Source of the DNA: Gammaproteobacteria bacterium
Lineage (GTDB): Bacteria; Pseudomonadota; Gammaproteobacteria; Natronospirales; REEB76
Direction: 5' to 3'
DNA length: 64,000 bases
Assembly: GCA_049591455.1 (NCBI GenBank)
Contig: JBAWFA010000015.1
Location: forward strand, 75,143 to 139,142
Shown: one piece after another, positions 22,293-43,500 of the stretch
Layout: every line of letters begins with the position of its first letter
Position numbering within the stretch: position 1 is the stretch's first letter
Translations under genes and position numbers: made by a program
Notes under the pieces: generated by a model
Told to the model about the DNA's origin: nothing
The model's database searches: none
The model's input: the letters and a program-made list of their open reading frames with translations, nothing else

Positions 22293-22330
22293 GGACATAC
22301 GGAAAGTTGCCGATGGTCTATCCTTATGTA
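22293..22330 (+). repeat. HNH-3'-end-derived repeat, copy G (weak, decayed)
   Basis: GACATACGGAAAG...GCCGATGGTCTATCCTTATGT. Compare copy A GATACGAAAG...ACCGTGGTCTGCCTGTATTG. Confidence 0.35.
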
Positions 22331-23218
22331 AGATTTACATCGCCCATCGAGAGAAGCGCGGGAGCGAACATGCCAAAGCATCTTGAAGCAAATCGTAGCC
22401 TGAACTACCCCCTATTATTCCGGATGCTGGCAGGAGTATTTAGCTGTATGCACGGATACCAATTTCAGGCCGTCTTTATACTGACTTGCGCGTTAAGCGC
22501 CTGCGGCTCCAGGCCGCCTCGCGGCACACCACCGCCAAACTTGTACGCCACGACGTCCTACTGGATGAATCCGTATTGGCAAGCGGAGATGTTAACTGCC
22601 ATGCAGTCCGTGGTGCGCCTCCCTGCCAATGCGTCTAGTTCGGCCACACCCCGAATTTATGGAACGCTGAAGTTCCTGTTCGATAACGGGGCCATCAAAG
22701 ATCCGGTGATCGTCACCAGCACGGGCGACCCCGCGCTGGATAAGCTGCTGCTTCAGCAGGTGGTTACGGCGAAGGTACCCAAACCCTTCGGAGCTCATAC
22801 CGACCAAGCCCATGAATTCGAGTTACGGCTCGAGATGTTTACACCGTATGAGACGTTCGAGTACGACTTGAATGCAGCTATAGACAGCAAGAAAGGCTAT
22901 ACCAGGGATGCAATCTTGAAAGGAAACATGGGAATCACGACCGTGGATTTCGACTATCTGGATGGCAAAGCGCTCAATATTGCAGTCGCCAAATCCAGCG
23001 GGCATAAGGATTTGGATCAAATTTCCATCGACACCATATCCGGCGCTATCCTGCCGCCACCGCCTCCAGGTTATGCGGGTAAAACTGTACATATGCAGTT
23101 GATCTTCTGTTACGACATCGTTACTTCCTTCAACCAGCCCGGTAAATGTCCGGTGGGGGGAAATATCATCAGCGTGGAAGGCGCCCGGATTAAGCGTACT
23201 AGCGTAGTTCGTTATTAA
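22307..23218 (+). CDS. Lipoprotein with two TonB-C-terminal-like domains; start uncertain
   Basis: Lipobox ILTCALSACGS. GTLKFLFDNGAIKDPVIVTSTGDPALDKLLLQQV and TTVDFDYLDGKALNIAVAKSSGHKDLDQISIDTI resemble TonB_C folds. The real start is probably an internal Met (MPKH... or MLAG...). Confidence 0.5.
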   Translation: MPMVYPYVRFTSPIERSAGANMPKHLEANRSLNYPLLFRMLAGVFSCMHGYQFQAVFILTCALSACGSRPPRGTPPPNLYATTSYWMNPYWQAEMLTAMQSVVRLPANASSSATPRIYGTLKFLFDNGAIKDPVIVTSTGDPALDKLLLQQVVTAKVPKPFGAHTDQAHEFELRLEMFTPYETFEYDLNAAIDSKKGYTRDAILKGNMGITTVDFDYLDGKALNIAVAKSSGHKDLDQISIDTISGAILPPPPPGYAGKTVHMQLIFCYDIVTSFNQPGKCPVGGNIISVEGARIKRTSVVRY

Positions 23219-23230
23219 CGTCGCACTGAC

Positions 23231-23319
23231 GTGCGGTGATATCTATCGAAAGATTCGCTGGAGCGGCGATACGAAAGCTTCATGCGATAAACCGTGGTCT
23301 GCCTGTATTGCTATTATCG
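23231..23319 (+). repeat. HNH-3'-end-derived repeat, copy A
   Basis: ATCGAAAGATTCGCTGGAGCGGCGATACGAAAGCTTCATGCGATAAACCGTGGTCTGCCTGTATTGCTATT aligns with 32414-32484. In frame it reads LSKDSLERRYESFMR*. Confidence 0.8.
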
Positions 23320-23329
23320 ATTTTGATAT

Positions 23330-24326: not shown

Positions 24327-24330
24327 TGGC

Positions 24331-24428
24331 TGAAGGAAGTGGATGCACCAATGCTGAAATATGAATTGCAGGTACTGCAAAATTCTGAATTGGTTTTCCT
24401 TTTCGGGCTACGGATCGGCCATCAAAAG
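24331..24428 (+). repeat. HNH-3'-end-derived repeat, copy B
   Basis: Translates EVDAPMLKYELQVLQNSEL, versus EVDGPMLKYGLQALHNSEL of the intact gene (32325-32420). It carries CGG (about 24416-24418) where the intact gene has TGA. Confidence 0.8.
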
Positions 24429-24450
24429 AATTCCCCTCATTCTCGCAGCC

Positions 24451-26680: not shown

Positions 26681-26857
26681 GGTCGAGACCTCCGGGTTAC
26701 GTCACGCCGGTATAGGCGTGATCGTGAGCTTGCACCATTAAAGCGCAAATCGTTGTTTACTGCATCACCAACATCAATACTTACCAATGGGAATACTGTC
26801 TTAGTCGTGGAAGCCAACAGGATCATTCGAGGTAATTCAAGGAGCCTCTGATTTATT

Positions 26858-26927
26858 CGTCGTACCCGCGAACGCGGGTACCCAGGTTCTTGATTATTCT
26901 GGATTCCCGCTTGTGCAGGAATGACGG
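26858..26927. repeat. Two inverted REP-type palindromes, type 1 (the 'VIPAKAGIQ / WIPACAGMT' type)
   Basis: CGTCGTACCCGCGAACGCGGGTACCCAGG (26858-26886) and CTGGATTCCCGCTTGTGCAGGAATGACGG (about 26899-26927) are reverse-complement relatives of each other. A short TTCTTGATTATTCTGG piece resembling the HNH-repeat tail lies between them. Confidence 0.75.
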
Positions 26928-26950
26928 AAACGGAATTGATCAGAGCTTCC

Positions 26951-27016
26951 TTAACAGATCCTGCATTCGGCGAAGCCGCTGGCGAAGGGTTTGCGGTCCT
27001 TTTCGGTCATGTGCGC
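26951..27016 (-). pseudogene. Displaced 3'-end fragment (21 codons + stop) of a paralogue/allele of gene 29523-30545
   Basis: Reverse translation gives AHMTEKDRKPFASGFAECRIC*, versus the intact C-terminus YAHMDQKGREAFAGGFAECGIH*. About 80% nt identity by eye. Confidence 0.75.
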
Positions 27017-27017
27017 C

Positions 27018-27070
27018 GAGCGAAGATATCAACGCTTCATGCAATAAACAGTCTGCTGCCTCATATCGTC
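27018..27070 (+). repeat. HNH-3'-end-derived repeat, copy E
   Basis: GAGCGAAGATATCAACGCTTCATGCAATAAACAGTCTGCTGCCTCATATCG reads ERRYQRFMQ* plus tail. It abuts the fragment at 26951-27016. Confidence 0.75.
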
Positions 27071-27091
27071 ATGTGTCAATACAAAACTCCC

Positions 27092-29377
27092 TCATTTACC
27101 GGGATGGTAAACGCGTTCTGTGTGGCCCTTGAGTTGATCGGGCCAGAAGTACACGGTGCGGAGATCGCCGCTGACGTAACGGGCAGCCTGGTCGGTGAAA
27201 TGCGGGTATTTCGGATTGCCGCTGGCGCCGCCGACATGGATCGCGCGTGCGCTCACCTTTGGACCGAAATCAACTACCGCGACAAAGCTATTGCCGTCGT
27301 TACCGTAATACTTCTTGGTACCGGGCCACGTGTGCGCGCCGAACGAGGCCAACGAGCCCCAGCGTGAGGAAGTGAACGGCACCGCAATGCTGGGTTTGGC
27401 ATCGTCGAAATGCGGTTGGATCGAATCATCGAGGCGCTGGTAGCGGTTGATCTCGCCCCACGGCACACCCCAGTAACCGAAATCCGTCTTGAGTTTATCG
27501 ACCGCTTCGGCGAGTGCTGCAAGACGCACCTTCGGCGTGGCCTTTTCGGCGATGTAGTCGTACGTGCGCATGACATAAGTATGCGAGTCGAGGCCGCTGG
27601 CACGAGCGTCGGCGCCGACCTCATCCCACAATGTGTCGCCCCAGAACACCGCGACCGAAGTCGGGATCGAGGCAATGCCCCAGCGATAATCCCAATGGCG
27701 TAACACCCCGATCGGGCCGGCCAGTTTCGCTTTCAATGGGTCACTCGCGGGCAGGTCGTCGTAGTCCTTCACCAGAATCGGGATCAGTCGTGCGAACGCG
27801 GGCAGATACGAATCGAAGGCATCGGTGATCAGCTTGGCGCTGGTGAAATCGCGTGCGCCATTCAACATGAGCAGCGCATGCTTGCTGCGCGGATTCGGGC
27901 CGAACATATCCATGTACTGCGGATAGTCGGCAGCTTTCGGGCTGTACTTGCCGGCGGCCGTCCACGGCCAGTCGTTGGTATTGAACACCCAGCCATTGGG
28001 CGGGTTCATCACATTGGGCATGTCCTTGAGCGGCGTCAGGCCCTGCCATGCTGTGGCGGGATTGCTGCCGTCCACGGGCTTCATGTAATCGAACCGGTTA
28101 TTACGTTTGGGGATGAACTGCGGCACCAGAAACGCGATTTCGCCCTTGTCGTCGGCAAAGATGGTGTTGTTGGACGAGTTGGCTTGGAGTTGTGCAATCT
28201 TCATGTAGCTCGCAAGGTCGGTGGCCTTGGTGCGCAGCCAGCTTTGTTCCAGTGCGGGGATCGGTTCGTTCATCAGCGCCTCGGCAATCCACTTGCCATT
28301 TTCCTCCGCGACGATTGGCCCGGGTTGGGCGAAATACGCAGTGAACCTGCGTGACATCATCGTGCCGTCCTTGCCGAGGTAGCGGATGGTGATCACGCGC
28401 GTTTTTAGCGGCAACAGTTGTTTGCCGAAACGATAGAAATATCGGTCGTCTTGCTTGACGCCGGTTTCGGCGAACTGATCCACCGCATCGACGCCGGTCG
28501 AGGTGTGCATCCAGCCGACGTGCTTGTTAAAACCCTGATAGATGAAAAACTGGCCCCAGGTCGAGGCGCCGTAGGCGTCGAGTCCCTGATCGCTCGACAT
28601 CTGTGTCTCGTCGCGGAAATTGAAGGTGACGTGCGGGTTGATCAGCAGCAAGGCGTGGCCGTCGGCAGTCAGCTTGGGTGCGATCGCGATGCCATTCGAG
28701 CCGGTCGCCGCTTGCCATGTTGCGGGCTTGGTATCGGCCAATGCCAATGCAGTGGCGCGGTCAGCGCCGTAGAACGTCGCAAGTTTGGCCAGGTTCACAC
28801 GGGTGATATCGCCGCCGATACTACCCTCGGTGAAGGCCAGCGCCATCCACGGCTGGTACTGCTTGATGACCTCGGGGTGGATGCCGGGGTGTGTGGCCAG
28901 GTACCAGTTCATGCCGTCGGCCCAGGCGTTCATGAGCTGTATCAGCCATGCGGGACTTTTGGCGTAGTCCTGCTTCAGCACCACCGGGTCGATGAAAAGT
29001 TGTTCGCGCAGGTCCTCCCAGATGGCCGCCTCGCCCTTTGCCTGCGCGGTCCAGCCAAGCGCCAGCAGGTAGTTGTTCTCGACGCGGCTGAAGTCATCTT
29101 CACACTGCGCGTAGATCATCCCGAATACCGCGTCGGCATCGGTCTTGCCGTGCACATGCGCGATGCCCCAGTTGTCGCGGGTGATCGTGACCTGCTGCGC
29201 TTCGCGTGCGAGGCGGGCGTATTCAGGAGTGTTCCGGGTGACCGGGATTCGCCACGTCGCAGGGGCGTCGCTATCGGTGCGTGCGGTTGCCGCAGCGGCC
29301 GTGCCCGGTGCCAGCAAGATGGCAACTCCCAGCGCACACGCAAATGCAAACAGACTGCAGCGAATATTGGATGGCAT
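27092..29377 (-). CDS. Penicillin acylase (S45, Ntn-hydrolase) family protein, secreted
   Basis: 761 aa with a signal peptide and a predicted autoprocessing site ...ATG|SNGIAIAP (N-terminal Ser nucleophile of the beta chain). Family-typical length. The substrate (beta-lactam, acyl-homoserine lactone, other) cannot be told from sequence. Confidence 0.8.
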   Translation of the reverse strand: MPSNIRCSLFAFACALGVAILLAPGTAAAATARTDSDAPATWRIPVTRNTPEYARLAREAQQVTITRDNWGIAHVHGKTDADAVFGMIYAQCEDDFSRVENNYLLALGWTAQAKGEAAIWEDLREQLFIDPVVLKQDYAKSPAWLIQLMNAWADGMNWYLATHPGIHPEVIKQYQPWMALAFTEGSIGGDITRVNLAKLATFYGADRATALALADTKPATWQAATGSNGIAIAPKLTADGHALLLINPHVTFNFRDETQMSSDQGLDAYGASTWGQFFIYQGFNKHVGWMHTSTGVDAVDQFAETGVKQDDRYFYRFGKQLLPLKTRVITIRYLGKDGTMMSRRFTAYFAQPGPIVAEENGKWIAEALMNEPIPALEQSWLRTKATDLASYMKIAQLQANSSNNTIFADDKGEIAFLVPQFIPKRNNRFDYMKPVDGSNPATAWQGLTPLKDMPNVMNPPNGWVFNTNDWPWTAAGKYSPKAADYPQYMDMFGPNPRSKHALLMLNGARDFTSAKLITDAFDSYLPAFARLIPILVKDYDDLPASDPLKAKLAGPIGVLRHWDYRWGIASIPTSVAVFWGDTLWDEVGADARASGLDSHTYVMRTYDYIAEKATPKVRLAALAEAVDKLKTDFGYWGVPWGEINRYQRLDDSIQPHFDDAKPSIAVPFTSSRWGSLASFGAHTWPGTKKYYGNDGNSFVAVVDFGPKVSARAIHVGGASGNPKYPHFTDQAARYVSGDLRTVYFWPDQLKGHTERVYHPGK

Positions 29378-29451
29378 CGGTCTTCTCCCGAATCGCGTGG
29401 CGAATGATCTTGATCTTACGCCACAGGTGTAGATAGGAATAATGAATAATT

Positions 29452-29478
29452 GGGATCAGTCTGTCCCCATTTATTCGC
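29452..29478 (+). repeat. HNH-repeat tail-only copy F
   Basis: GATCAGTCTGTCCCCATTTATTCG. Compare the tails CCGTGGTCTGTTCCCGATTATTCC (C) and ACAGTCTGCTGCCTCATATCG (E). Confidence 0.45.
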
Positions 29479-29522
29479 AGTGTCACTCCACGGCAGCGAG
29501 AATTTGAGTCGTGCCGACAAAC

Positions 29523-30545
29523 TCAGTGGATCCCGCATTCGGCGAAGCCGCCGGCGAAGGCCTCGCGCCCTTTCTGGTCCATGTGCGCGTAGAGATATTT
29601 CCTCGCTGCACAGACTTTCAGTGCGTGGGGGTCCTTGTGTTTCAGTGCTGCCACCATGTCGAGCTTGCCGACAGGTGCGACATTACCCGGGCAGGTATAG
29701 CGTCGGTACGAATCACCTTTGGTGGTCAGCTTGGCTTTGTCATTACCGCACCAGACCGTGATGTAAGGATCGTCGGCATTCAAATCCCAGGGCCGATCGT
29801 TGACCAAAGTCATGGAGTCGGTCAACACCGTGATGGGCTGATAGAAACCGTCCGCATCGGTCTCCGGAAACGAATCTCCGCTTTTCGTCGTGGTTGTCGG
29901 CACTGGCCGGTTAGCCTGGTGGCAGGCGCCGCATTGATTGAGCCGGCGAAACTCCGCCATTTCCTGCTTGGCCTTGGCCGGCGCACCCGGATAGTAGAGT
30001 TTGAGCAGACTGTCGGCAGCCAGATTGTCGCCCGCGGGCCCGGTGCGCAGCCATGCGAAACCACTCAGCCATTTGGATGATTGGCCGGGAACCGGCTCGT
30101 AGACATGCCACCATGTTTTGCCGTTGGCGGCGATCATCGCGCCGCGCACATCGGAGATGCCATTGACCGTAAACATCGCTTGTATCTGTTTTTCGCCGCC
30201 ATCGATGCGGTCGGCCACGGTGCCCGGTGGGAATTTCAAGGTATAACGCTTCTGGTCAGCAAGCCACTGCACGCCGACGTTCTTGCCTGCCGGAACACGC
30301 AGCCAGACCATGACGTATTCATGAATGCTCTTGTCCGTCGGCAACCTCACGGGTGGTTCCATTTCCACGAAACCGGACTGCTGCCAGTGGCTAATGCTGT
30401 TGGGAATGCGAACCGCATGCAGTTGAATGTTCTGAGCGCAGACCGTGAGCGGACACAGCAACGCCAGCAAGCCGGCAACCCACAACCATCCCGGGAGCGC
30501 AGTCAGGGTGAGCCAGCAAATCGGCGGGTGCGAGAGCTGCTTCAT
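29523..30545 (-). CDS. Secreted hypothetical protein with a single CXXCH haem-c-type motif
   Basis: Start moved to MKQLSHPPICWLTLTALPGWLWVAGLLALL (RBS AAGAGGAAG upstream). Motif NQCGACHQ. No family recognised. The longer listed ORF (to 30710) would overlap repeat C and the next gene. Confidence 0.6.
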   Translation of the reverse strand: MKQLSHPPICWLTLTALPGWLWVAGLLALLCPLTVCAQNIQLHAVRIPNSISHWQQSGFVEMEPPVRLPTDKSIHEYVMVWLRVPAGKNVGVQWLADQKRYTLKFPPGTVADRIDGGEKQIQAMFTVNGISDVRGAMIAANGKTWWHVYEPVPGQSSKWLSGFAWLRTGPAGDNLAADSLLKLYYPGAPAKAKQEMAEFRRLNQCGACHQANRPVPTTTTKSGDSFPETDADGFYQPITVLTDSMTLVNDRPWDLNADDPYITVWCGNDKAKLTTKGDSYRRYTCPGNVAPVGKLDMVAALKHKDPHALKVCAARKYLYAHMDQKGREAFAGGFAECGIH

Positions 30546-30606
30546 GGGCTTCCTCTTTGGAATGGCTTCGAGTTCAGATTGAGCGGTATTGTTGCATGAA
30601 ACATGT

Positions 30607-30683
30607 TTAAGGAAGTGGATGGACCGAGGAGCGGAGATATTAACGTTTCCTGCCATAAGCCGTGGTCTGTTCCCGATTATTCC
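30607..30683 (+). repeat. HNH-3'-end-derived repeat, copy C (internal ~90-bp deletion)
   Basis: TTAAGGAAGTGGATGGACC joined to GAGGAGCGGAGATATTAACGTTTCCTGCCATAAGCCGTGGTCTGTTCCCGATTATTCC. Both halves align with 32325-32343 and 32430-32484. Confidence 0.8.
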
Positions 30684-30690
30684 CAGCATT

Positions 30691-31485: not shown

Positions 31486-31548
31486 TTATAATGCTCCGAA
31501 GAACAAATATTTATGCTGACATCTTAAAAATTCAGCTATGCTAATAGC

Positions 31549-34242: not shown

Positions 34243-34272
34243 GGGACCTTCTGATACGCTGCCCATTTAGGG

Positions 34273-34405
34273 TCAGGGATGTTGGATTGATCCGTAAACG
34301 ATGGCAAACATTATTCCGCCGAAGATGCAAAGTATGTAGGCCGCGATCACGACGATGGCGAATATCCCCATGTACTTCCACGGGGATTTCTGATGCCGGA
34401 GCGCG
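34273..34405 (-). pseudogene. Displaced 3'-end fragment of the 4-TM membrane-protein gene 35221-35661
   Basis: Translates (M)EDALRHQKSPWKYMGIFAIVVIAAYILCIFGGIMFAIVYGSIQHP*, versus intact EDALKHQKSFWKYLGIFAIVMIVAYIVIIIGGIAFAVIYGLGHHP*. About 75% nt identity by eye. Confidence 0.8.
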
Positions 34406-34429
34406 TCTTCCATGTCCCAAGCTATATAC

Positions 34430-35212
34430 TCATTTGCAACCTAGTTTACGCCACGTGGCCAGGTCATTCTTCTTCGCGGCAGCCAGGCATTCATCGCTGA
34501 GGTCAGTCTCCTCCTTCTTCGCTGCGTTTTGGCTCGCGGCTTCTTCAGCGCGCATTTTATCCATTAGCTGTTGCTTGGCTGACATCTGTTCCGCATACCA
34601 ATCATCATCTCCGCAATATCTTACATCTTCTGCATCATCCACTGCCTGAAGATTCTGCTCGGCGACTGCGATATCGGCTTTCGTTCCGCCCTTCTTTGCA
34701 ACCTTCAGGGCTGCTTTCATAGCATCTTCTTGCGCTGATAACGCAGCACACTTGGTTTGATGCACATGCAAGGCCGTGGTGAAATTAGCCGCGTCCTCGG
34801 GTACGTAAATGGCGAGCCCCGTGACGGAACCACGGATAATCGGCACAGAAGCACCAAAGGCGTAACCACCGTAATCATTGCTATTCCAAGTTGCTGTACT
34901 GATGGAGCCGGATGTGACGGTGCCAGCTGATTGCAAAAGGACACCGGTGGCGCCTGCATCCATGGCTTCTTCTTTAATACCCTCCAAGGCATTTTCCATC
35001 TTGCTTTCATCACTGAATCCACGGCCTTTTCCAGTGACCATGCCTATCACTTCATAGTGAGCTGGTGGCGAGAAATAGAGATATACGTTCTCCCAGTTAT
35101 CTATGACAGGTTGTCTCTCCTGCCCCTGCTCGACGATAGTTCCAGAACTGCACCCAGCCAAGAGAATCAGGAAACCACAGAAGACCCAAGTCTTCATGCT
35201 CTTAGTATTCAT
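34430..35212 (-). CDS. Lipoprotein, hypothetical
   Basis: Start moved to MNTKSMKTWVFCGFLILLAGCSSG (lipobox LLAGC). N-terminal globular part, C-terminal charged coiled-coil-like part. 8-nt gap after the upstream gene. Confidence 0.6.
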   Translation of the reverse strand: MNTKSMKTWVFCGFLILLAGCSSGTIVEQGQERQPVIDNWENVYLYFSPPAHYEVIGMVTGKGRGFSDESKMENALEGIKEEAMDAGATGVLLQSAGTVTSGSISTATWNSNDYGGYAFGASVPIIRGSVTGLAIYVPEDAANFTTALHVHQTKCAALSAQEDAMKAALKVAKKGGTKADIAVAEQNLQAVDDAEDVRYCGDDDWYAEQMSAKQQLMDKMRAEEAASQNAAKKEETDLSDECLAAAKKNDLATWRKLGCK

Positions 35213-35220
35213 CACTGCCT

Positions 35221-35661
35221 TCAAGGATGATGGCCCAATCCATAAATAACGGCAAAAGCTATTCCGCCGATGATGATAACGATATATGCCACGATCATAA
35301 CAATCGCGAATATTCCCAAATACTTCCAAAAGGATTTCTGGTGCTTGAGGGCATCTTCAAGCGCGGCCTGCCCGGACGCCGGGATGCGTGTAATGGCATT
35401 GCCATAGCGCATCAGATACAGGCAGGGAATCAGATAAAAGAAAACCGCCATCAGGATATAAAGAATCCCAAAGACAGGGCCGAAAACCGGCGACAGTCCG
35501 GATCGCGCAGGCATGGCAGAGAAGCCCGCGAACATGACCAGTCCGGCGAGCACCATGAACGCCATCACTACGAACCCCAGGATCGCGAGAAATTTCACCC
35601 ACGGACGCGTGGCATTCAAGGCGTCCAGCATGTCATCTGAAACTACGATTTGCTCGGCCAT
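35221..35661 (-). CDS. Small polytopic (about 4 TM) membrane protein, hypothetical
   Basis: 146 aa. WVKFLAILGFVVMAFMVLAGLVMF..., FGILYILMAVFFYLIPCLYLMRY..., C-terminal FWKYLGIFAIVMIVAYIVIIIGGIAFAVIYGL. Confidence 0.6.
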   Translation of the reverse strand: MAEQIVVSDDMLDALNATRPWVKFLAILGFVVMAFMVLAGLVMFAGFSAMPARSGLSPVFGPVFGILYILMAVFFYLIPCLYLMRYGNAITRIPASGQAALEDALKHQKSFWKYLGIFAIVMIVAYIVIIIGGIAFAVIYGLGHHP

Positions 35662-35876
35662 CTTCCTTCTCCCCGGTTAGTTATCGTTGGAATCCCGATT
35701 AAATCTAGTCCAGTTGATGGAGACTCGCAACAAACTTCTCACAGCATTTCCACGGTCCTAAATCCCTGGGGCTGGCCCTATTGCGCAGGGGATAGATGAC
35801 TGAGGCCAGGCCACGTCAGACTTCTGCTGCTCCACAGCCTGACGGGCACTGGTTCCACCGGCACCGGAGAACACCC

Positions 35877-38800
35877 TTATGGAGGCGAACTTTTGCCATC
35901 GCTCTCGCCGGCACCTCCCACAAGCGGGAATATATTCTCGCGGACAAGCGTTTGATTGAATTGCGGCAGATCACTCTGCATCAGAGTTTGGTACTGCGCC
36001 CTGGCATCGCCCAGCCTCTGGTCGAGCAGCTGAAGGACCTGGATCGTCGCGTCGGTCGGGGGATAACCCGGATCGCCGTACACATCACCGGCACCGGTAC
36101 CCAATTCGCCGTTCAGCCAGATCAGGTGGAGGTACAGGCCGTAGTGGGCAAGGTAGCTTTTTTCGTCGCTGTTGGCGAGCGCCGGCGATAGCAGTTTGTT
36201 TTCCAGATCCTGGATCTTCTTGTCCATGTCCTTGATCGCCTGCAACGTTTTGCTGTGTGCGGATTTTTTATCGGCTTTCAGCATCGCCTCCACCGTCTGG
36301 AGTTGCTTCCGCAGCCACTCTGCCTGGTTCACCATGGCGGTTACGCTGGAAATATCACCCTGGATATGCAGCAGCAGCTTGACTCTGGCTTCGGTCTGCG
36401 CGGGTGTTTCCGGCGAGCGCGGGCTGGCCAGCACTTTGAATGTCTGGTCGTAGGTTTTGCCAGCGACCGTCACGCGCGCGGTGTAGGTGCCGGGCGCGAC
36501 CAGCGGACCGACTTCCGCTTCCTTGATGCCCCAGTGGGTGATCGGCCGCGAATCCTTGCCCATGAATCGCAACGCGTCCCAGACATGCGGATTCGTCGTG
36601 GGCGTGGTCCGCAGCATGATCAGTTTCGGTGGTGCATAACGGAGATCCCAGTACACGCGATTGATGCCCGTGTGTACCTGCGCATCGGGGTCATGCGCCC
36701 AGTGTCCCTCCTTATATGTGGGGTTGAGTCCCGGCTTCTTTTCGTCCGCGACGAGCTTGAGCTCGCGCACCACCTTCCCGTCCGCATCCAGTATGGCGAC
36801 CTTGATGCCCGCCGTGGCCTTCTCCTCTTTTAGCTTTTTCTCATTTTCCTCATCGTCTTTGCTGTTCGTGGTTTCCTTCACCTTGGGTACGGAGTCAAGC
36901 CAGAAGGCAATGAAGGCATGCGCGCCATTGAAGAAGCGATACGCCGGCCGCGACTTGAAAACCCGGACCGGCGCAGTGGCGCCGCTGTTTGCCAAGCGTT
37001 CCAGCGGACTGATGTCTTCCAGCACGTAGATGCCGCGCCCGTACGTGGAAACCACCAGATCGTGGAACGGCTTCTGCACCGTTTCCCAGGAGACCGGCGC
37101 ATGCGGCAGGCCCGCTTGTAACGGCATCCAGTTTCCACCCGCGTCAAACGAAACATACAACGCGTTGCCGGTCCCGGCGAAAAGCAGGTTCTTGTTGTAC
37201 GGATCCTGCGCCACCGAGCTCACATTGCTTGTGGGGCTGACCGGAATGCCATGCACGATGAGCTTCCAGCTTTGTCCGAAGTTCGTGGTTTCGTAAATAT
37301 ACGGCTTGCTATCGCCCATCAGGGCAAGGTCCACCGCGATATAAGCGGTCCCGGCATCGAAGTGCGAGGGTTCTATGCGGCTGACCGTTCCCCATGGCGG
37401 TAAGTTGGGGATGTTCTTGGTAACGTTGGTCCAATGGCCACCGGCATCGCGCGTCAACCAGATTTGTCCATCGTTCGTACCCGCCCAGATCAGCCCTTTC
37501 TGCACCGATGAGGGCGCAATGGCGAATACAAGCTCACCGTAGAATTGCCCCAAGTTGTCCTGCCGGCGTATTTTGCCCTTGTCCGGGATGCCACCCGATG
37601 GCACGAGATATTTGGGATTGTGCGTTGAAAGGTCGGGGCTGATCACGCTCCAGCTCTGGCCGCCATTTGTCGTCTTGAAAATCACCTGACAACCGTAATA
37701 CACGGTGTTGTGGTCGAACGGATCGATTGCCAAGGGTGGCGTCCAATGGCAACGGTATTTCAGATCCTCCGGGGGCGAATCAAGCGAATGCAGGGGCCAC
37801 GGGCTTACCGCCCGTGGATAACCGACCTTGGTGTCGAGGCGGGTGATCTCATTCCCGTAGCACGTGCTCCAGATGATGTCGGCATCGGTCGGATCCGGAT
37901 AAGTGAAGCCGGATTCACACCCGCCCAGCGGTTCCTGCCAGCCGGCATTGAGCTCCCCGATGCCGCCAAGCAGCGGCGTGGAGTCCGGATAAGCCGGCCC
38001 GCGTTCGGCGTCGTCATCCTGCATGTTGGTATACACCCAATAGGGCACCTGGTTGTCGACGGCCACGTGATACATCTGGCCGATAGGCAGCGTCACGTGA
38101 TGCCAGTTTTCGCCGCCGGTGGTGCTGATTTCAACCCCGCCGTCATCGCTGATCATGATCCGATTGGAGTTGCTTGGATCGAACCAGATATCGTGGTTGT
38201 CACCGCCCCAGTGCTTTTCCTGGAATGTTTTGCCCCCGTCCCCGGACACATAGAAGCCGTTGCTGGCCACGAAGATTTTGTCTTCGTCTGTCGGAGAGAC
38301 GGCGAGACGCACGCAATAGCCGGCGCGTTCCGTCAGCAGCCGGCTATAGTTCTCGACATTCCAATGCTTGCCGCCGTCGTCGGAACGCCACAGTGAACCC
38401 TGTTGCGCGGTCTCGATGAGGGCGTACACGCGGTCGGGATTGGACGGCGCGATGGCCACATCAATTTTGCCGAGGGGCGCGTCCGGCAGGCCGTGGTCCT
38501 TGATTTGCTTCCAGGTGTTACCACCATCATGCGAAACATAAACGCCACTTGACGGGCCGCCGCTGGTCATCGCCCAGGGGCGAATCATCCACTGCCACAT
38601 GCCGGCAAACAGAATGTGCGGATCTTGCGGGTCCATTGCCAGGCCGGAACAGCCAGTGTTGCCGCTGACGAACAGTGTGTGCTTCCAGGTCTTGCCGGCG
38701 TCGTCGGTGCGCCACACACCGCGGGACTGCTCCGGACGCGTGCCCGTACCCATGGCGCAAACGAAAATGTTTTGCGAATCATGGGGGTTGACCACGATGC

Positions 38801-39251
38801 GGGCAATCAGCCCTGTGTCATCCAAACCCATATGCGTCCAGTTGCGGCCGCCGTCGCTCGACTTGTAAACACCGTCGCCTGGCGTAATGCCATTGCGGAT
38901 CACCCAGGGTTCGCCGGTGCCGACCCAGATCACCGAATGCTGGTTCGGATCGACCGCCAGGGCGCCAATCGACTGCACTGGTTGCTTGTCGAAAATCGGT
39001 TTGAACTTATAGCCGCCATCGGTCGATTTCCAGACACCACCGGAGGCGGCACCGATGTAATAGACGTTCGGATCGCCGGGAACGCCGACCACAGCGCTCG
39101 CGCGGTTGCCGCGATCCGGACCGACGAAGCGGAATCGAAGCGACGTGAGATCCTTGGCAGTGACGTCGTGGGTCCCGGCAGCGCGCGGCGCACCGGCGAT
39201 CGCCAACAGGAAAAGTAGGACCAACCACGTCATGGATACTCGGGCTTTCAT
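35877..39251 (-). CDS. Large secreted BNR/Asp-box repeat (sortilin/VPS10-like beta-propeller) protein
   Basis: 1124 aa with a signal peptide and at least 10 SxDxGxTW-type boxes (STDGGYKF, SSDGGRNW, TDDAGKTW, SHDGGNTW, SDDGGKHW, SGDGGKTF, TTNGGQSW, TRDAGGHW, TTNFGQSW, SFDAGGNW). Confidence 0.8.
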   Translation of the reverse strand: MKARVSMTWLVLLFLLAIAGAPRAAGTHDVTAKDLTSLRFRFVGPDRGNRASAVVGVPGDPNVYYIGAASGGVWKSTDGGYKFKPIFDKQPVQSIGALAVDPNQHSVIWVGTGEPWVIRNGITPGDGVYKSSDGGRNWTHMGLDDTGLIARIVVNPHDSQNIFVCAMGTGTRPEQSRGVWRTDDAGKTWKHTLFVSGNTGCSGLAMDPQDPHILFAGMWQWMIRPWAMTSGGPSSGVYVSHDGGNTWKQIKDHGLPDAPLGKIDVAIAPSNPDRVYALIETAQQGSLWRSDDGGKHWNVENYSRLLTERAGYCVRLAVSPTDEDKIFVASNGFYVSGDGGKTFQEKHWGGDNHDIWFDPSNSNRIMISDDGGVEISTTGGENWHHVTLPIGQMYHVAVDNQVPYWVYTNMQDDDAERGPAYPDSTPLLGGIGELNAGWQEPLGGCESGFTYPDPTDADIIWSTCYGNEITRLDTKVGYPRAVSPWPLHSLDSPPEDLKYRCHWTPPLAIDPFDHNTVYYGCQVIFKTTNGGQSWSVISPDLSTHNPKYLVPSGGIPDKGKIRRQDNLGQFYGELVFAIAPSSVQKGLIWAGTNDGQIWLTRDAGGHWTNVTKNIPNLPPWGTVSRIEPSHFDAGTAYIAVDLALMGDSKPYIYETTNFGQSWKLIVHGIPVSPTSNVSSVAQDPYNKNLLFAGTGNALYVSFDAGGNWMPLQAGLPHAPVSWETVQKPFHDLVVSTYGRGIYVLEDISPLERLANSGATAPVRVFKSRPAYRFFNGAHAFIAFWLDSVPKVKETTNSKDDEENEKKLKEEKATAGIKVAILDADGKVVRELKLVADEKKPGLNPTYKEGHWAHDPDAQVHTGINRVYWDLRYAPPKLIMLRTTPTTNPHVWDALRFMGKDSRPITHWGIKEAEVGPLVAPGTYTARVTVAGKTYDQTFKVLASPRSPETPAQTEARVKLLLHIQGDISSVTAMVNQAEWLRKQLQTVEAMLKADKKSAHSKTLQAIKDMDKKIQDLENKLLSPALANSDEKSYLAHYGLYLHLIWLNGELGTGAGDVYGDPGYPPTDATIQVLQLLDQRLGDARAQYQTLMQSDLPQFNQTLVRENIFPLVGGAGESDGKSSPP

Positions 39252-39525
39252 CTGAGTCTCTCCTTCGAAGCGTTTAGCAGTTTGTTGAAATATACTTTTG
39301 ATTTTCCACTGATCTTGGTTTGAGAGGTATCACGAATCAGTGGCGACACACTTGCGATTGCCCATATCGAGATCTCCGCTAGCAAACCCGCATCACTCAA
39401 TCGAATCTGACCCTATTAATCTTGATCTAGTTCACATTGGAACCTGAGCAGTGCCTTTGACAGCCAATTGATGAAGCTGGCTGAACGCGTTGCTGTAATC
39501 ACCAACCCGTTCAACCGACCATGAG

Positions 39526-39643
39526 CTACATGTTCCTTCGGTATTCCCCGCCCACTTCATACAGCGCATGACTGATCTGCCCTGGCGTGTTGTACTTCAC
39601 CGCTTCCATCAACGAAGTGAGGATGTTCTTGGGGTCGCGGGCG
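39526..39643 (-). pseudogene. Displaced icmF 3'-end fragment (F1; 38 codons + stop)
   Basis: Translates [39 protein letters not shown], versus the intact icmF end [38 protein letters not shown]. About 80% nt identity, with differences mostly at third codon positions. Confidence 0.85.
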
Positions 39644-39644
39644 A

Positions 39645-39842
39645 CTACAATCTGAATACCCGGTATTTTTCCGGTGGCCGCGCTGGCCATTTCGGGCACA
39701 GGGCTTCGACAACCTCCATGAGGTCCACCCAGTCGGACAAATCCAATTTGGCTGGCAAGGATGTCTTCATGACAGCGTTCCCAACCAGCGGATGGCTATC
39801 CCGGTCAGTCATTGTCATTCGCGATTTCGGCAAGCCACTCAT
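39645..39842 (-). CDS. Small hypothetical protein (65 aa), third gene of the NTase cassette
   Basis: MSGLPKSRMTMTDRDSHPLVGN...DWVDLMEVVEALCPKWPARPPEKYRVFRL. Its ATG overlaps the upstream stop (ATGA). Its stop abuts fragment F1. Confidence 0.4.
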   Translation of the reverse strand: MSGLPKSRMTMTDRDSHPLVGNAVMKTSLPAKLDLSDWVDLMEVVEALCPKWPARPPEKYRVFRL

Positions 39843-40027
39843 CTGTTGTCTACTGGTGGAACGGGTTCCCGTAACTGCTTGATAACACCCGAGCGCCATG
39901 CGAAATCCAGCATGTCCTCAAACGATCGAATCTTGTCGTCAGTGGTCATGCGGATACCATCCAACAAATGGTTATGCTCTGCATCTTCGAACGTACACTT
40001 CAGATCACTTTGGCTTTCAGATTTCAC
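39839..40027 (-). CDS. Small hypothetical protein (62 aa), second gene of the NTase cassette
   Basis: (GTG start) KSESQSDLKCTFEDAEHNHLLDGIRMTTDDKIRSFEDMLDFAWRSGV. The start overlaps the NTase stop. Confidence 0.4.
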   Translation of the reverse strand: MKSESQSDLKCTFEDAEHNHLLDGIRMTTDDKIRSFEDMLDFAWRSGVIKQLREPVPPVDNR

Positions 40028-40542
40028 TATGCTCGACCTTCACTGTAGGACATCTGGCGCTGTATTTCCCGCAATTTCTCAATGTCGTCCTCGTCCCGTA
40101 CACGATGTGTACCGCTCTTCATTTCTATCAAATGGGCAATACTGGCTACCCTGATTGGTACGCCATCATAGACCTTGACAATCGAGTCATGCCACAAGTC
40201 CGTGAATTTCACAGGTTCGTGCACGAAAACATCTATGGATCGCTGAGCATTCTTGGGATCCCAGAGCTGGAAAACCATCATATGCTTGTTTCGGTACCAA
40301 TCCTCACGCTTCTTGGGATCGGCAAAATCCTGCATGACGACCGGCAGGCGCGGCTTGAGTCCGATGCTCTCCAGGGTTTCGAGTGCCTTCCTGCAATTCA
40401 CCGGGTCCAGATCAATCACGAGATCCAAGTCCTGGGTCAAGCGAATGTGGCCATGCAATATGACCGCCAATCCGCCCACAACCACGTAACGCACCTGCGC
40501 CTTGTCCAAGGCGGTAAAAATTTCATGCACGTTAAAGGCCAT
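40027..40542 (-). CDS. Minimal nucleotidyltransferase-fold protein (AbiEii/MNT-like)
   Basis: Start moved to MAFNVHEIFTALDKAQVRYVVVGGLAVILHGHIRLTQDLDLVIDLD (G[GS]x9-13DxD NTase motif). The listed longer ORF would overlap icmF. Confidence 0.65.
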   Translation of the reverse strand: MAFNVHEIFTALDKAQVRYVVVGGLAVILHGHIRLTQDLDLVIDLDPVNCRKALETLESIGLKPRLPVVMQDFADPKKREDWYRNKHMMVFQLWDPKNAQRSIDVFVHEPVKFTDLWHDSIVKVYDGVPIRVASIAHLIEMKSGTHRVRDEDDIEKLREIQRQMSYSEGRA

Positions 40543-40570
40543 ACTTTTTGATCGCCCAGTTACTTTCGTG

Positions 40571-43500
40571 CTACATATTCCTTCTATATTCGCCACCAAC
40601 TTCATACAGTGCATGGGATATCTGCCCCAGCGAGTTGTACTTCACTGCTTGCATCAACGAGGTGAAAATATTTTTGCGATCGCGGGCAGTTTGCTGCAGC
40701 AGTTTGAGGCTGTCTGTCCCGCGTGAATTACGCGCCTCACGATAGCTCTCCACGTTCTCGATTTGTTTGCGCTTCTCGCCCTCGGTGGAACGGATCAGCT
40801 CGATCTTGGTGACGATATCGCCGGCGTGTTCCTTGGGCAGGAAGGTGTTGACGCCCACCAGCGGCAACGAACCGTCGTGCTTCTTCTGTTCGTAGTACAG
40901 GCTTTCTTCCTGGATCTTGCCGCGCTGGTACATGGTGTCCATAGCGCCCAGCACGCCGCCGCGCTCGGAAATGGACTCGAACTCCTTATATACCGCCTCC
41001 TCCACCAGGTCCGTGAGCTGTTCGATGACGAAGCTACCCTGCCAGGGGTTCTCGTTGAAGTTCAGCCCCAGCTCGCGGTTGATGATGAGCTGGATGGCCA
41101 CGGCGCGGCGCACGCTCTCTTCAGTGGGCGTGGTGATGGCTTCATCATAGGCGTTGGTGTGCAGGCTGTTGCAGTTATCAAACAGCGCATACAAAGCCTG
41201 CAAGGTGGTACGGATATCGTTGAACTGGATTTCCTGGGCATGCAGCGAACGGCCGGAAGTCTGGATGTGGTATTTCATCATCTGGCTGCGGGCCGAGGCG
41301 CCGTAGCGTTCACGCATGGCGCGCGCCCAGATACGCCGCGCCACCCGGCCGATGACGCTGTACTCCGGGTCCATGCCATTCGAAAAGAAGAACGAAAGGT
41401 TGGGCGCGAAGTCGTCGATCTTCATACCGCGTGCCAGGTAATACTCCACAATGGTGAAGCCGTTACTGAGCGTGAAGGCGAGCTGCGAAATGGGGTTCGC
41501 GCCGGCTTCGGCGATATGATAGCCGGAAATGGATACCGAATAGAAGTTGCGGACCTTGTGGTCCACGAAATATTGCTGGATGTCACCCATCATGCGCAGC
41601 GCGAACTCGGTAGAGAAGATGCAGGTGTTCTGAGCCTGATCCTCTTTCAGGATGTCTGCCTGCACGGTGCCGCGCACTTTGTGCAGCGTCTCGGCCTTGA
41701 TGCGCGCGTAGGTTTCTGCGTCCACCACTTCGTCACTGGTGACGCCCAGCAATCCCAAGCCCAGACCATCGTTACCTTCCGGCAGTTCGCCGGCGTACTG
41801 CGGACGCGGTTTGTCTCTATATATAGAGGCAACTTTCTTTTCGGCCGCTTCCCAGCGCTTTGTGTCTTCCTTGAAATACTTCTCCACCTGCTGATCAATC
41901 GCCGTGTTCATGAACATGGCCAGGATCATGGGCGCGGGGCCGTTGATGGTCATGGACACGGAGGTCTTGGGGTCGCACAGATCAAAGCCCGAGTAGAGCT
42001 TCTTCATGTCGTTGAGGCTGGCGATACTGACACCCGAATTGCCCACCTTGCCGTAGATATCCGGACGCTCCGCCGGGTCTTCGCCGTAGAGTGTGACGGA
42101 ATCAAAGGCGGTGGAAAGTCGTGCCGAATCCTGGCCGTGGGAGAGGTAATGGAAGCGGCGGTTGGTGCGCTCCGGCGTGCCTTCGCCCGCGAACATGCGC
42201 GTCGGGTCTTCGCCGATGCGGCGGTAAGGATACACGCCCGCAGTGTAGGGATAGGCGCCCGGCAGGTTCTCGCGCATCAGAAAGCGCAGCAGGTCCGCCC
42301 AACTTTTGTACACGGGCGGTGCAATCTTCGGCACCTTGGTGCGGCTCAGGGATTCAGTGTAGTTGCTGCCCTGGATGGCTTTGCCGCGCACTTCATAGGT
42401 GTAATGCTCGTCGGTAATGCTTTTCAGACGCTGCGGCCATTCACGCAACAGATGCAGGACTTCAGTGGAGAGTTCCTTGACGGCTTCGTTGTAGCGCTGG
42501 CGCAGCACAATCAAAGAAGAATCGGTTCCTGAATCTGATATGGGCTGGACCCCGGCTTTTGCCGGGATGGCGGCGTGCAAATCATTTGATTCATACAAGT
42601 CCAGCGGCTTTCGCAGGCCCGGATCGTTGAGATCACGCAGAACTTCATAGAAATGCTGGGCGCGACCGGCCGTCTCTGCCTGCCGGTCAATGTCCTGGTT
42701 AATGCCGCGGCCCTGTTCGGAAATCTCGGCGAGATAGCGCACGCGCGCGCCGGGGATCAGCACCGTGGCGCGTGGTTCCTTGATGGAAACATCCACCTGT
42801 GGCGTCCACTTGTCCGCCGGCAAATGTAATTTTTCTCGCAGCAGCCGGCACAGGTTCACGAACATCCAGGTGATACCGGGGTCATTGAACTGGCTGGCGA
42901 TGGTGGGATATACAGGTACATCTTCGTCCTTGAGTTTGAAGGCGGTGCGATTGCGCTTCCATTGTTTTTTGACGTCGCGCAGCGCGTCATCGGCGCCGCG
43001 GCGGTCGAACTTGTTGAGCACCACCAGTTCCGCGTAATCCAGCATGTCAATTTTTTCGAGCTGACTGGCCGCGCCGTAGTCGCTGGTCATCACGTAGCTG
43101 GAAAAATCCACCATGTCCACGATCTCGGAATCGCTTTGACCGATGCCCGCGGTCTCAACGAGAATCAAGTCATAGCCCTGGCCACGCAAAAAATGGATGC
43201 AGTCCTTGAGCATTTCGTTGGTGGCAGCGTGCAGGCGGCGCGTAGCCATGGAGCGCATGAATACGTGCTTGTTACGCAGCGCGTTCATGCGAATGCGGTC
43301 ACCCAGCAGTGCGCCGCCGGTGCGGCGGCGCGTGGGGTCCACCGCCAGCACCGCGACACGCATCTGCGGAAATGCATGCAGGAAGCGCAACAGCAGTTCG
43401 TCCACCACCGAGGACTTGCCCGCGCCGCCGGTGCCAGTGACGCCCACCACCGGCACTTTCTTGCCGGCGAGATCCCATTGCTTGCGCAACCGTGTCAGCT

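Follow-up and report, generated by a model that had tools for sequence, protein, structure and literature searches.

Several known systems come close to the locus described here. In the displacement of Rhs C-terminal regions (Jackson 2009, cited in PMC5361080) and in the T6SS effector-immunity arrays of Vibrio cholerae (PMC5361080), sequential displacement leaves an intact gene followed by orphaned 3′ fragments, each attached to the module that followed it earlier. The most recent module adjoins the intact gene, the cargo is of the conflict or addiction type, integrases play no part, and the model combines an anchor by homology on one side with an illegitimate join on the other. Restriction-modification (RM) systems can insert with long target duplications (Nobusato 2000; Furuta, Abe and Kobayashi 2010; PMC2853133). 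Variable slots without mobile elements that pass between genomes through homologous recombination in the core genes beside them include core defence hotspots (PMC10250203), toxin-antitoxin (TA) islets (PMC13617665) and those of Oliveira 2017 (PMC5635113); for TA islets, such recombination is the current view (PMC13617665). Integrase-mediated islands at gene 3′ ends with their integrase-less derivatives (CIMEs, MGI-type mobilizable islands), and integron cassette arrays with the attC clusters that lack an integrase (CALINs), also combine cargo with repeated elements. Neisseria minimal mobile elements belong to the variable slots named above.

The locus described here shares with the Rhs and T6SS arrays each of the features listed for them above. 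It differs in that its anchors are the housekeeping metabolic gene icmF and ordinary neighbours rather than a polymorphic toxin gene, that the fragments comprise only the last 40–400 nt and encode no alternative toxin tip, that mirror cases at 5′ ends occur, and that the cargo includes TA, RM and type IV restriction genes, X-Tfe/LprI pairs and hydrolases.

Gene-end copies in the window

The window is the whole 64,000-nt stretch analysed, positions 75,143–139,142 of the forward strand of contig JBAWFA010000015.1 (Gammaproteobacteria bacterium, GCA_049591455.1). Repeats within it were searched by self-BLASTN. For comparison, displaced icmF ends were counted in 151 icmF loci across Lysobacterales/Xanthomonadales, and empty sites were read from two relatives, L162 (acylase) and L082 (lipoprotein). 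A first-pass annotation of the window had reported gene-end copies around cargo. These copies are real: the self-BLASTN repeats are statistically significant and all direct. The icmF-proximal features are as follows.

40571–44062, minus strand: icmF, fused isobutyryl-CoA mutase (translation; Pfam B12-binding, MeaB and MM_CoA_mutase on orthologues)
40570–40687: repeated end A within icmF (self-BLAST)
39645–40542, minus strand: newest cassette, DUF6036 nucleotidyltransferase (NTase) gene (40027–40542) and small ORF remnant (39645–39899) (Pfam)
39525–39642, minus strand: displaced icmF 3′ end B, 38 codons plus stop, frame intact
35877–39251, minus strand: BNR/Sortilin-type glycosidase-like gene (Pfam)
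35221–35661, minus strand: 4-TM membrane protein gene, with the in-gene, incoming end in its final 138 nt (35221–35358)
34430–35212, minus strand: lipoprotein gene, cargo of the 4-TM end insertion
34273–34410, minus strand: displaced 4-TM 3′ end, native (collinearity with L082)
34150–34247, minus strand: decayed displaced icmF 3′ end C (self-BLAST; comparison with L082)
32615–34086, minus strand: decayed low-GC defence genes, DUF262/NsnA-like (33007–34086, split by a frameshift) and HEPN (32615–33010)

The anchor of the array is icmF, a conserved core gene, and the region upstream of it is collinear with L001. Translation and Pfam on orthologues identify the gene as the fused mutase; its reading as a type VI secretion gene was rejected. 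That its end had been duplicated twice holds for copies B and C, the latter being decayed. End A matches B at 80.5% over 118 nt (E = 4e-24), with 15 synonymous and 5 non-synonymous codon differences, and B begins 2 nt past the stop of the small ORF. This remnant is akin to the ORF that accompanies another type of NTase in L082 and L004, and orthologous NTase cassettes adjoin icmF in L032, L025, L082, L162 and L165. A displaced icmF end with its 160-nt spacer and NTase gene in L162 matches the in-gene icmF end, spacer and NTase gene of L165. Compared with L001, L162 and L082, the BNR gene and copy B make up an additional block: there is no BNR gene between the NTase cassette and the 4-TM gene in L162 and L082, nor between icmF and the 4-TM gene in L001. 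Copy C, whose start lies at about −117 nt relative to the stop, has its orthologue in the L082 copy ending at 12226. In L056 and L071, too, a DUF262 gene follows icmF or one of its displaced ends.

The remaining features lie beyond the defence genes.

31549–32484, plus strand: HNH type IV restriction-like gene with a premature TGA (32410–32412); true end near 32471
30607–30682, plus strand: HNH 3′ fragment c30, between a 264-aa gene and the CXXCH gene; orthologue in L162
29523–30545, minus strand: CXXCH protein gene, backbone; its last ~60 nt (29529–29588) are the incoming end
27018–29377, minus strand: incoming block of a penicillin-acylase gene (27092–29377) and HNH fragment c27 (Pfam)
27018–27061: HNH 3′ fragment c27, 44 nt, at the far end of the acylase block
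26951–27016, minus strand: displaced CXXCH 3′ end, native, with the stop context of L162
24330–24429, plus strand: HNH 3′ fragment c24, between POP and esterase; orthologous with L162 13377–13542
22313–23301, plus strand: TonB_C lipoprotein gene (22370–23218) with flanking HNH 3′ fragments c22 (22313–22402) and c23 (23245–23301)
14593–15514, minus strand: membrane-protein gene between the intact GFA 5′ end (14593–14647) and a GFA 5′ fragment (15460–15514)

Two relatives provide empty sites. The two CXXCH ends (29529–29588 and 26957–27016) are 84% identical (E = 7e-9). The acylase gene is absent from L162 and L165, and in L162 the CXXCH gene is directly followed by POP. The displaced copy has the stop context of L162 and continues into ~90%-identical native intergenic DNA and POP; in contrast, the in-gene end runs on into unrelated DNA and the acylase gene. 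Identity of the CXXCH gene to L162 drops from ~90% to 77–80% at the 3′ end. The displaced copy is thus the native end, and the in-gene end came with the cargo. At the far end of the acylase block, the sole junction examined for microhomology, the join is to an arbitrary 44-nt HNH fragment (c27) with GCGCA microhomology. The scope was overstated at first: CXXCH, POP, esterase and S9 are no separate insertions but conserved backbone, common to L162 and L165.

For the 4-TM gene, the in-gene and displaced ends (35221–35358 and 34273–34410) share 74% identity over 138 nt (E = 1e-17). L082 shows the site without the lipoprotein gene: its in-gene 4-TM end, a spacer and a displaced icmF end are collinear with the displaced 4-TM copy, spacer and copy C of the window. 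Here too, the displaced copy is the native end. Construction of the region by serial and nested insertion, leaving truncated, diverged gene-end copies, is supported.

The HNH case is different. The HNH gene, intact as a 303-aa orthologue in L165, represents the master copy of these 3′ fragments: its 3′ region (32228–32484) matches five fragments with E from 4e-18 to 2e-3. The multiple copies reported earlier are therefore there, but the proposed order of gene, cargo and copy is not, as the fragments lie upstream of the HNH gene. Three of them occupy the same positions in L162, and they are old relics. They call for a separate history, in which the restriction gene once sat in several slots or anchoring took place from the other side. 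The GFA gene, reported as duplicated at its 5′ end, is found by self-BLASTN as the mirror-image case (E = 1.6e-4 between the two 55-nt segments listed above).

Boundaries, recurrence and divergence of the copies

Homology had been said to start exactly at the stop codon. This is so within 0–2 nt for icmF and the 4-TM gene, but for CXXCH it starts ~5 nt before the stop. The repeats span 38 (icmF), 45 (4-TM) and 20 (CXXCH) codons, where 21–44 had first been given. At the other side, the inner boundaries vary from −44 to −407 nt. Of ~22 displaced icmF copies, 8–9 begin −116 to −129 nt from the stop, with different cargo on the left; the deletion endpoint of copy C relative to L082 is one of these breakpoints. 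As first noted by eye, junctions of the duplicated genes share no motif that we could find, and no hairpins were detected in the repeats (folding z about 0).

The supposition that the pattern recurs was borne out: displaced icmF ends are present at ~20 of the 151 loci, about one in eight related genomes, cultured isolates included. L082 carries four in a row. The cargo at these loci consists of TA, RM and effector-immunity modules. Some blocks of cargo measure only 0.6–0.8 kb, and L165 has a copied POP 5′ end.

Sixteen pairs of displaced and in-gene icmF ends were compared by codon position. Differences numbered 62, 44 and 214 at first, second and third positions (67% at third positions), and synonymous codon changes far exceeded non-synonymous ones (for example, 30 versus 3 in L004). 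The two ends therefore accumulated their differences while functional, so that two orthologous ends were brought together rather than one being duplicated in place. Compared with close relatives, in-gene ends also show more local divergence than the remainder of the gene.

Origin of the arrays

Homology-anchored recombination is a better fit to the pattern than a dedicated mobile element would be. Our preferred reading, to which we give a probability of about 0.6, is that the region from icmF to beta-lactamase/S9 is an integrase-less gene-exchange hotspot built by one-sided, homology-anchored insertion followed by homologous recombination. DNA from a diverged relative would pair with the chromosome through a shared gene beside the insertion point (icmF, 4-TM, CXXCH, POP or GFA). 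On one side, homologous recombination would take place within this gene; on the other, an illegitimate join would form upstream of the gene's edge and not beyond it. The gene would gain the incoming end plus cargo, and the resident end would be pushed downstream, truncated but keeping its old downstream DNA. That homology ends at the stop codon would reflect conservation between donor and recipient in coding sequence alone. Repeated events would stack cassettes, the newest adjoining the intact gene, a sequential displacement like that put forward for orphan arrays of the T6SS and Rhs types (PMC5361080). Once a cassette lies between two conserved gene-end copies, a double crossover could move it to any genome with that gene. 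Addictive cargo (TA, RM, immunity genes) would favour events that add a module over those that replace the resident one. The repeats, the empty sites, the native copies, the selection signature and the recurrence are observed; the enzymology (RecA with an illegitimate or end-joining step), the DNA entry route and this selective argument are inferred. Campbell-type capture through a gene-end segment, put forward earlier, comes close to this scheme. Several points speak against the preferred reading: illegitimate joins at random positions would not be expected to cluster within −116 to −129 nt, cargo is packed close to stop codons on both sides, the intact HNH gene has its fragments upstream, microhomology comes from a single junction, and homology-facilitated illegitimate recombination occurs only rarely under laboratory conditions (PMC5361080).

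One rival is a dedicated, site-directed system, either a recombinase acting in trans, as also suggested by the first-pass annotation, or a nuclease cutting recurrently ~120 nt before the icmF stop, with the ~120-nt gene end as recombination site for compact cassettes in integron-like arrays. The clustering of breakpoints at −116 to −129 nt with unrelated left-hand cargo, including the copy C endpoint, the array of four in L082, and tight cassettes co-directional with icmF, often with no room for a promoter of their own, agree with it. Like integron arrays and CALINs, the locus has compact, co-oriented, TA-rich cassettes separated by a repeated element and joining at the front. In contrast to these, the element is a coding fragment that does not fold and is not attC-like, and intI, attI and R′/R″ motifs are absent here. 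More than half of the boundaries fall outside the cluster, no sequence is conserved to their left, and DUF4160/DUF2442 cargo stands at different junction distances across genomes. The other duplicated genes of the window share no motif, copies of 5′ ends (GFA, POP) occur, and a dead HNH fragment flanks the TonB_C gene. In the window, the housekeeping xerD (5772–6731) is indeed the only recombinase found, and no mobility gene was found. Within 10 kb downstream of icmF in 160 loci, no tyrosine recombinase was found by phmmer with XerD, a weak test, nor was a recombinase found by Pfam among selected large cargo ORFs; together these searches are not exhaustive. We consider such a system unlikely.

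The same negative searches count against stripped classical islands, which would have entered gene 3′ ends with a gene-end mimic and later lost the integrase and most cargo, as CIMEs did. The attL/attR geometry fits, with the in-gene end incoming and the displaced end native, and the copies diverged under selection; direct repeats of a gene 3′ end, a gene kept intact by the insert and tandem accretion, established for ICESt1/ICESt3 and CIMEs, are common to both. Unlike such islands, however, the locus has no fixed core, its icmF boundaries vary, and 5′ ends and pseudogene fragments were copied. Cargo goes down to 0.6–0.8 kb with junctions at cargo stop codons, and five target genes within 30 kb would each need their own integrase. 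This origin, also raised at first, appears quite improbable.

True target duplication at insertion, as described for RM systems (PMC2853133), has in its favour the small selfish cargo (RM, type IV restriction) between direct repeats of 46–423 bp, some published ones overlapping a gene 3′ end as here, with no mobility gene and a single copy at the empty site of relatives. Repeats in L040 (~95%, extending beyond the stop codon) and L126 (94.7%) are near-identical. But published repeats are nearly identical, as expected of a true duplication, whereas those here are 72–95% identical (74–84% in the window) and carry a purifying-selection signature, so that one copy came with the insert. The third-position excess with most frames intact is unlike neutral drift of one copy and argues against this origin in most cases, and it is the in-gene copy, not the displaced one, whose stop context departs from that of close relatives; the explanation is very unlikely. 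Finally, an assembly chimera of mixed strains can be practically dismissed: the window probably derives from a metagenome-assembled genome (MAG), its closest relatives in the genome collection are MAGs, and the matching Logan contig from run SRR28024125 ends near a repeat (window 26924), but that independent assembly is 100% identical over window 26924–38430 (11.5 kb) and spans four repeat pairs, the divergence of the repeats is too great for an assembler to be misled, and the same architecture is present in a 918-kb contig and in the isolates Dyella humi, Dokdonella soli, Lysobacter hankyongensis and Dyella ginsengisoli.

Under homology-anchored insertion, the locus joins the mobile-element-free hotspots, with which it shares a variable slot between conserved genes, defence and TA cargo and no mobility genes. 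On this reading, it takes up conflict modules (toxin-antitoxin-like, restriction, effector-immunity) along with secreted hydrolases. Models of those hotspots invoke clean, scarless double crossovers; in contrast, the displaced gene ends described here record one-sided events and their order.

Repeated gene ends in the window

The icmF gene of the first-pass annotation (40571-44062, minus strand) is present, but Pfam searches on its orthologues identify it as a fused isobutyryl-CoA mutase and not as its type VI secretion namesake. Core leucine and valine catabolism genes lie upstream of it. The genes on its downstream side are listed below.

Genes downstream of icmF, in order toward lower coordinates
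DUF6036 nucleotidyltransferase (NTase) and a small ORF
BNR/Sortilin-type gene, 4-TM gene, lipoprotein gene
Low-GC block (39-45% GC): DUF262/NsnA-like gene (in two pieces, 33799-34086 and 33007-33795, owing to a frameshift), HEPN (RiboL-PSP) gene (32615-33010), HNH type IV restriction-like gene (premature TGA at 32410-32412), 264-aa gene
CXXCH protein gene, penicillin acylase, prolyl oligopeptidase (POP)
Esterase, TonB_C lipoprotein gene, beta-lactamase-fold gene, S9 peptidase

The segment 31549-34086, where GC is 39-45%, is a decaying defence islet. Long plus-strand ORFs antisense to the NTase cassette and to the displaced icmF end (39568-39882 and 39898-40551) appear spurious in this high-GC DNA; similar ones were also seen in relatives. 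Outside this region, a gene with a Tle1-like T6SS phospholipase-effector catalytic domain (17274-18341) lies amid secreted hydrolase genes, and no T6SS genes were found near it in the window.

The first-pass annotation had described gene-end duplications flanking cargo. These are real: they are significant, stand at the top of the self-BLASTN of the window and extend to the icmF loci of relatives. All are in direct orientation.

Direct repeats at gene ends (self-BLASTN)
40570-40687 and 39525-39642: icmF end (A, in-gene; B, displaced), 80.5% identity, E=4e-24
32323-32423 and 24330-24429: HNH end, 80% identity, E=4e-18
35221-35358 and 34273-34410: 4-TM end, 74% identity, E=1e-17
29529-29588 and 26957-27016: CXXCH end, 84% identity, E=7e-9
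15460-15514 and 14593-14647: GFA 5' end, 80% identity, E=1.6e-4

Four more HNH fragments came up in the same search, as did a third, weak copy of the icmF end near 34185-34241 (copy C). In alignments of the icmF and 4-TM ends, the stop codon is the edge of homology to within 0-2 nt. On the inner side of the repeats homology breaks off abruptly within the gene, and the window repeat pairs have no block of identity at this boundary. Since a Logan contig (run SRR28024125) matches window 26924-38430 at 100% identity, four repeat pairs are not the artefact of a single assembler. This contig ends at 26924, 27 nt past the displaced CXXCH copy, and at 38430; coverage or repeats could be the reason for these ends, as could strain variation within the sample. 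An exact-protein look-up with the 4-TM protein returned the same organism only.

Displaced icmF ends in related genomes

We fetched 160 icmF loci (designated by L-numbers), 80 of them from species-representative genomes and 80 from metagenomes. All are Lysobacterales/Xanthomonadales-like, with a highest IcmF identity of 89%. About 20 of the 151 loci with downstream sequence have further, partial copies of the icmF 3' region, 0.4-9 kb downstream and direct without exception. The affected loci include those of the cultured isolates Dyella humi, Dokdonella soli, Lysobacter hankyongensis and Dyella ginsengisoli. In L082 (IcmF identity 83%) four displaced ends follow in tandem.

Blocks split by displaced icmF ends in L082
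VapBC and NTase
Second NTase, small ORF and 4-TM gene
DUF4160 and DUF2442
Methyltransferase and restriction enzyme

The cargo of other loci includes HigBA, HicAB, DUF4160/DUF2442, NTase modules and X-Tfe (XVIPCD) effectors with LprI-type partners, which look like immunity proteins and are taken to be such. T4SS effector genes (XVIPCD and peptidoglycan-binding domain) with LprI-type partners were seen in L108 (11885-13435), L124 (13772-17012), L060 and L071. Because such genes occupy the slot in several relatives, the icmF hotspot also gathers effector-immunity pairs. Cargo is packed to within 0-30 nt of the stop codons on both sides. In at least eight loci (L004, L024, L053, L061, L069, L072, L081, L116) no more than 1-4 nt separate the icmF stop from the start of a second type of NTase (~195 aa, start MSRLVDQIKQ...), which leaves it no room for a promoter of its own; judged from this spacing, expression from icmF or from inside its 3' end seems likely. 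A consensus scan for promoters and terminators over window 39300-40800 gave nothing, so that a role of the icmF end as cassette promoter is unsupported.

REP-like GC-rich repeats (CCCTCTCCCCCGG / GGGAGAGGGTGAGGG) often adjoin the icmF stop or displaced icmF copies (L162 3290-3360; L165 3300-3440; L082 11990-12040), and lie just past the icmF stop in L070, L105, L124 and L144. A crude scan for gene-edge repeats over 2.9 Mb of loci returned 296 direct vs 70 inverted cases, mostly paralogous domains and REP elements, and is not taken as evidence.

The inner boundaries of the icmF copies (the start of the displaced copy, in nt before the stop) vary between -44 and -407. Internal fragments are found among the copies, and the copy in L040 is a plain duplication extending beyond the stop. 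The interval from -116 to -129 (sequence CGCCCGCGAC) accounts for eight or nine of about 22 boundaries. The cargo to the left of these is unrelated, and one of them is the endpoint of a deletion in window copy C relative to its L082 orthologue. The DNA left of the icmF boundaries holds no conserved sequence, and no common short motif was seen at the boundaries of the window pairs or of the relatives. Copies of 5' ends also occur. The window case is GFA; in L165 the copied stretch, found upstream of CXXCH (9867-9929 vs 11739-11802), comprises the POP promoter region with the start codon and first seven codons, and together with the real POP start it flanks CXXCH and RibD_C. It is the mirror image of the 3'-end copies.

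Resident and incoming ends

Over 16 pairs of displaced and in-gene icmF ends, differences at codon positions 1/2/3 number 62/44/214, and the reading frame stays open in most displaced copies. Synonymous-only vs non-synonymous codon differences are 30 vs 3 in L004, 24 vs 5 in L052 and 15 vs 5 in the window. This pattern is not expected from a drifting copy and disfavours duplication in place followed by neutral drift: the two copies represent orthologous ends. Decay is seen in a few old copies, with internal stops in L082 and indels in window copy C. In the nearest-neighbour comparison of A and B, icmF ends in general were about 75-85% alike.

Closer relatives were obtained through a look-up of CXXCH protein homologues. 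The layout of L162 is given below; that of L165 is similar, with an intact HNH gene.

Gene order in L162
icmF, DUF4160-DUF2442, displaced icmF end, NTase, 4-TM, lipoprotein, displaced 4-TM end
SIR2-like genes, HNH fragment, CXXCH, POP, HNH fragment, esterase, HNH fragment, GST, S9

Since L162 and L165 likewise carry CXXCH, POP, esterase and S9 (protein identity 80-94%, window vs L162 or L165), these genes form a shared backbone. The acylase, TonB_C, BNR and defence genes are strain-specific blocks. The beta-lactamase gene is found in the window and L082 and is absent from L162 and L165.

These comparisons tell which end is the older one. L162 lacks the acylase and has an empty site with a single CXXCH end; the displaced CXXCH copy of the window and the DNA behind it line up with this end, its stop context (GTTAA) and the intergenic DNA as far as POP, whereas the in-gene end of the window has a different stop context and leads into unrelated DNA and the acylase. 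L082 lacks the lipoprotein gene and is again an empty site: the displaced 4-TM copy of the window, followed by its spacer and copy C, is collinear with a stretch of L082 made up of the in-gene 4-TM end, a spacer and a displaced icmF end. The displaced icmF end of L162, followed by a 160-nt spacer and the NTase, matches the in-gene icmF end, spacer and NTase of L165. In the acylase, lipoprotein and NTase cases the displaced copy is thus the old end with its old neighbour, and the in-gene end arrived with the cargo. In agreement with this, the window CXXCH gene is about 90% identical to that of L162 overall and 77-80% in its last ~100 nt. Similarly, DUF262 follows icmF itself in L056 and a displaced icmF end in the window and L071. 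Just past the displaced CXXCH stop, the window has a 116-nt insertion vs L162 (~26835-26950) with two GC-rich inverted repeats, ...GTCATTCCTGCACAAGCGGGAATCC... and GGGTACCCGCGTTCGCGGGTAC; possible readings are a terminator or a small element of the MITE or REP kind.

The multi-copy element behind the HNH gene is coding sequence. Read past its premature TGA, the HNH gene continues as PSKDALERRYHSFVR up to a stop, and the fragments translate to matching peptides, e.g. LSKDSLERRYESFMR, also ending at a stop; in L165 the orthologue is intact and 303 residues long. All five HNH 3' fragments are found on the upstream side of the intact HNH gene, each directly behind the stop of a convergent gene, and three of the five are orthologous in L162, a locus without an HNH gene. 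In the window an HNH fragment, itself dead, is present on both sides of the TonB_C gene, and the acylase block terminates in an arbitrary 44-nt HNH fragment (c27) that abuts the CXXCH copy. At this junction, the only one with known parental sequences, there is a 5-nt microhomology (GCGCA). The fragments look like relics of a restriction gene once present in several slots; alternatively, they may mark the right ends of incoming DNA such as the acylase block. Tandem duplication of the S9 hydrolase genes was rejected as their source: the fragments are 75-85% alike and the hydrolase genes have no DNA similarity.

Probable insertion anchored by homology on one side

Judged from these sequence comparisons, the data most likely fit a homology-anchored insertion. 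One crossover would occur inside the shared gene, and the other end of the incoming DNA would be joined illegitimately. As this join would fall upstream of the gene's edge, the resident end would survive as a displaced copy, and repetition would lead to sequential displacement. Such a homology-anchor/illegitimate-join model was proposed for T6SS effector-immunity arrays and Rhs C-terminal displacement (PMC5361080). The displaced fragments are indeed contiguous with older DNA that follows the intact gene elsewhere, and the in-gene end is donor-derived, as seen from the local divergence of CXXCH and from an identical tract in L004. In the latter, the first 80 nt of a 405-nt repeat are identical and differences rise toward the stop, which is how a tract from junction to crossover would look. 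The interpretation of the first-pass annotation is right in part: serial insertion without a mobility gene holds. The Campbell-type variant, a single crossover with a circularised fragment, would give the same map and is plausible.

Homology-anchored insertion leaves unexplained the clustering near -120, the tight packing of cargo and the positions of the HNH fragments, and on their account a site-directed mechanism retains a low probability. We consider it unlikely that the last ~120 nt of icmF are a true recombination or break site (an enzyme, or a Chi-like or fragile site with host recombination). If they were, a housekeeping gene would, order-wide, be followed by compact addiction and defence cassettes in one orientation, in arrays reminiscent of integrons, and the cassette system would lack an integrase gene of its own.

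The 'insertion with long target duplication' of restriction-modification (RM) systems (PMC2853133) shares with our cases long direct repeats (>30 bp), the missing mobility gene and single-copy empty sites in relatives (acylase vs L162, lipoprotein vs L082). However, repeats there are nearly identical, whereas those of the window are 74-84% identical and the icmF pairs differ mainly at third codon positions. The NTase cassette with copy B had no BLASTN match in plasmid and phage collections, and no vehicle was identified.

By the defining tests, our cases qualify neither as integrase islands at gene 3' ends nor as integrons. The former resemble our cases in their 3'-end direct repeats and in the restoration of the gene by the insert, but a fixed, identical attL/attR core is missing, boundaries being variable and only partly near -120. 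As to integrons and CALINs, the repeats, when translated, prove to be coding sequence of HNH or icmF and not attC palindromes, and icmF stands at the head of the array in place of intI and attI. Single-strand folding of seven repeat copies against shuffled sequences gave z from -0.15 to +1.5, with no attC, REP or terminator signal. Rfam (gathering threshold) and ARAGORN detected just tRNA-Leu (3724-3811) in the window, and neither a structured RNA nor a tRNA target within the repeat region. The sole recombinase found in the window is the housekeeping xerD (5772-6731), which lies 34 kb away and adjoins dsbC. Jackhmmer and phmmer searches with XerD, weak for distant integrases, had no match among 9342 ORFs of the 160 loci, and Pfam found no recombinase among large cargo ORFs. 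With variable boundaries, 5' copies, no motif and no integrase found in 160 loci, the proposals of a trans-acting recombinase or of stripped islands are not supported. Remnants of tandem paralogues were considered and rejected, as none of the loci examined carries two full icmF copies.

On present evidence we are dealing with a known process in varied form, and with a useful natural system, not with a new element class; the nearest descriptions are sequential displacement and the RM long target duplication. How defence, toxin-antitoxin (TA) and restriction modules reach hotspots without mobile-element genes is an open question. The current view is that TA islets move via homologous recombination at flanking core genes (PMC13617665), which homology-anchored insertion extends. 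Clean recombination of this kind, the usual answer, is traceless and hard to test. Displaced ends are physical scars that tell incoming from resident DNA and give the order of arrival; they also indicate diverged relatives as donors and the sufficiency of one-sided homology. They point to a self-reinforcing effect as well: once flanked by two gene-end copies, a cassette could enter any genome with icmF by a plain double crossover, the left arm lying in the icmF body and the right one in the last 120 nt. Addictive cargo would favour addition over replacement. Some 20 cases, independent or semi-independent, make the icmF locus of Lysobacterales/Xanthomonadales a natural test system for this process.
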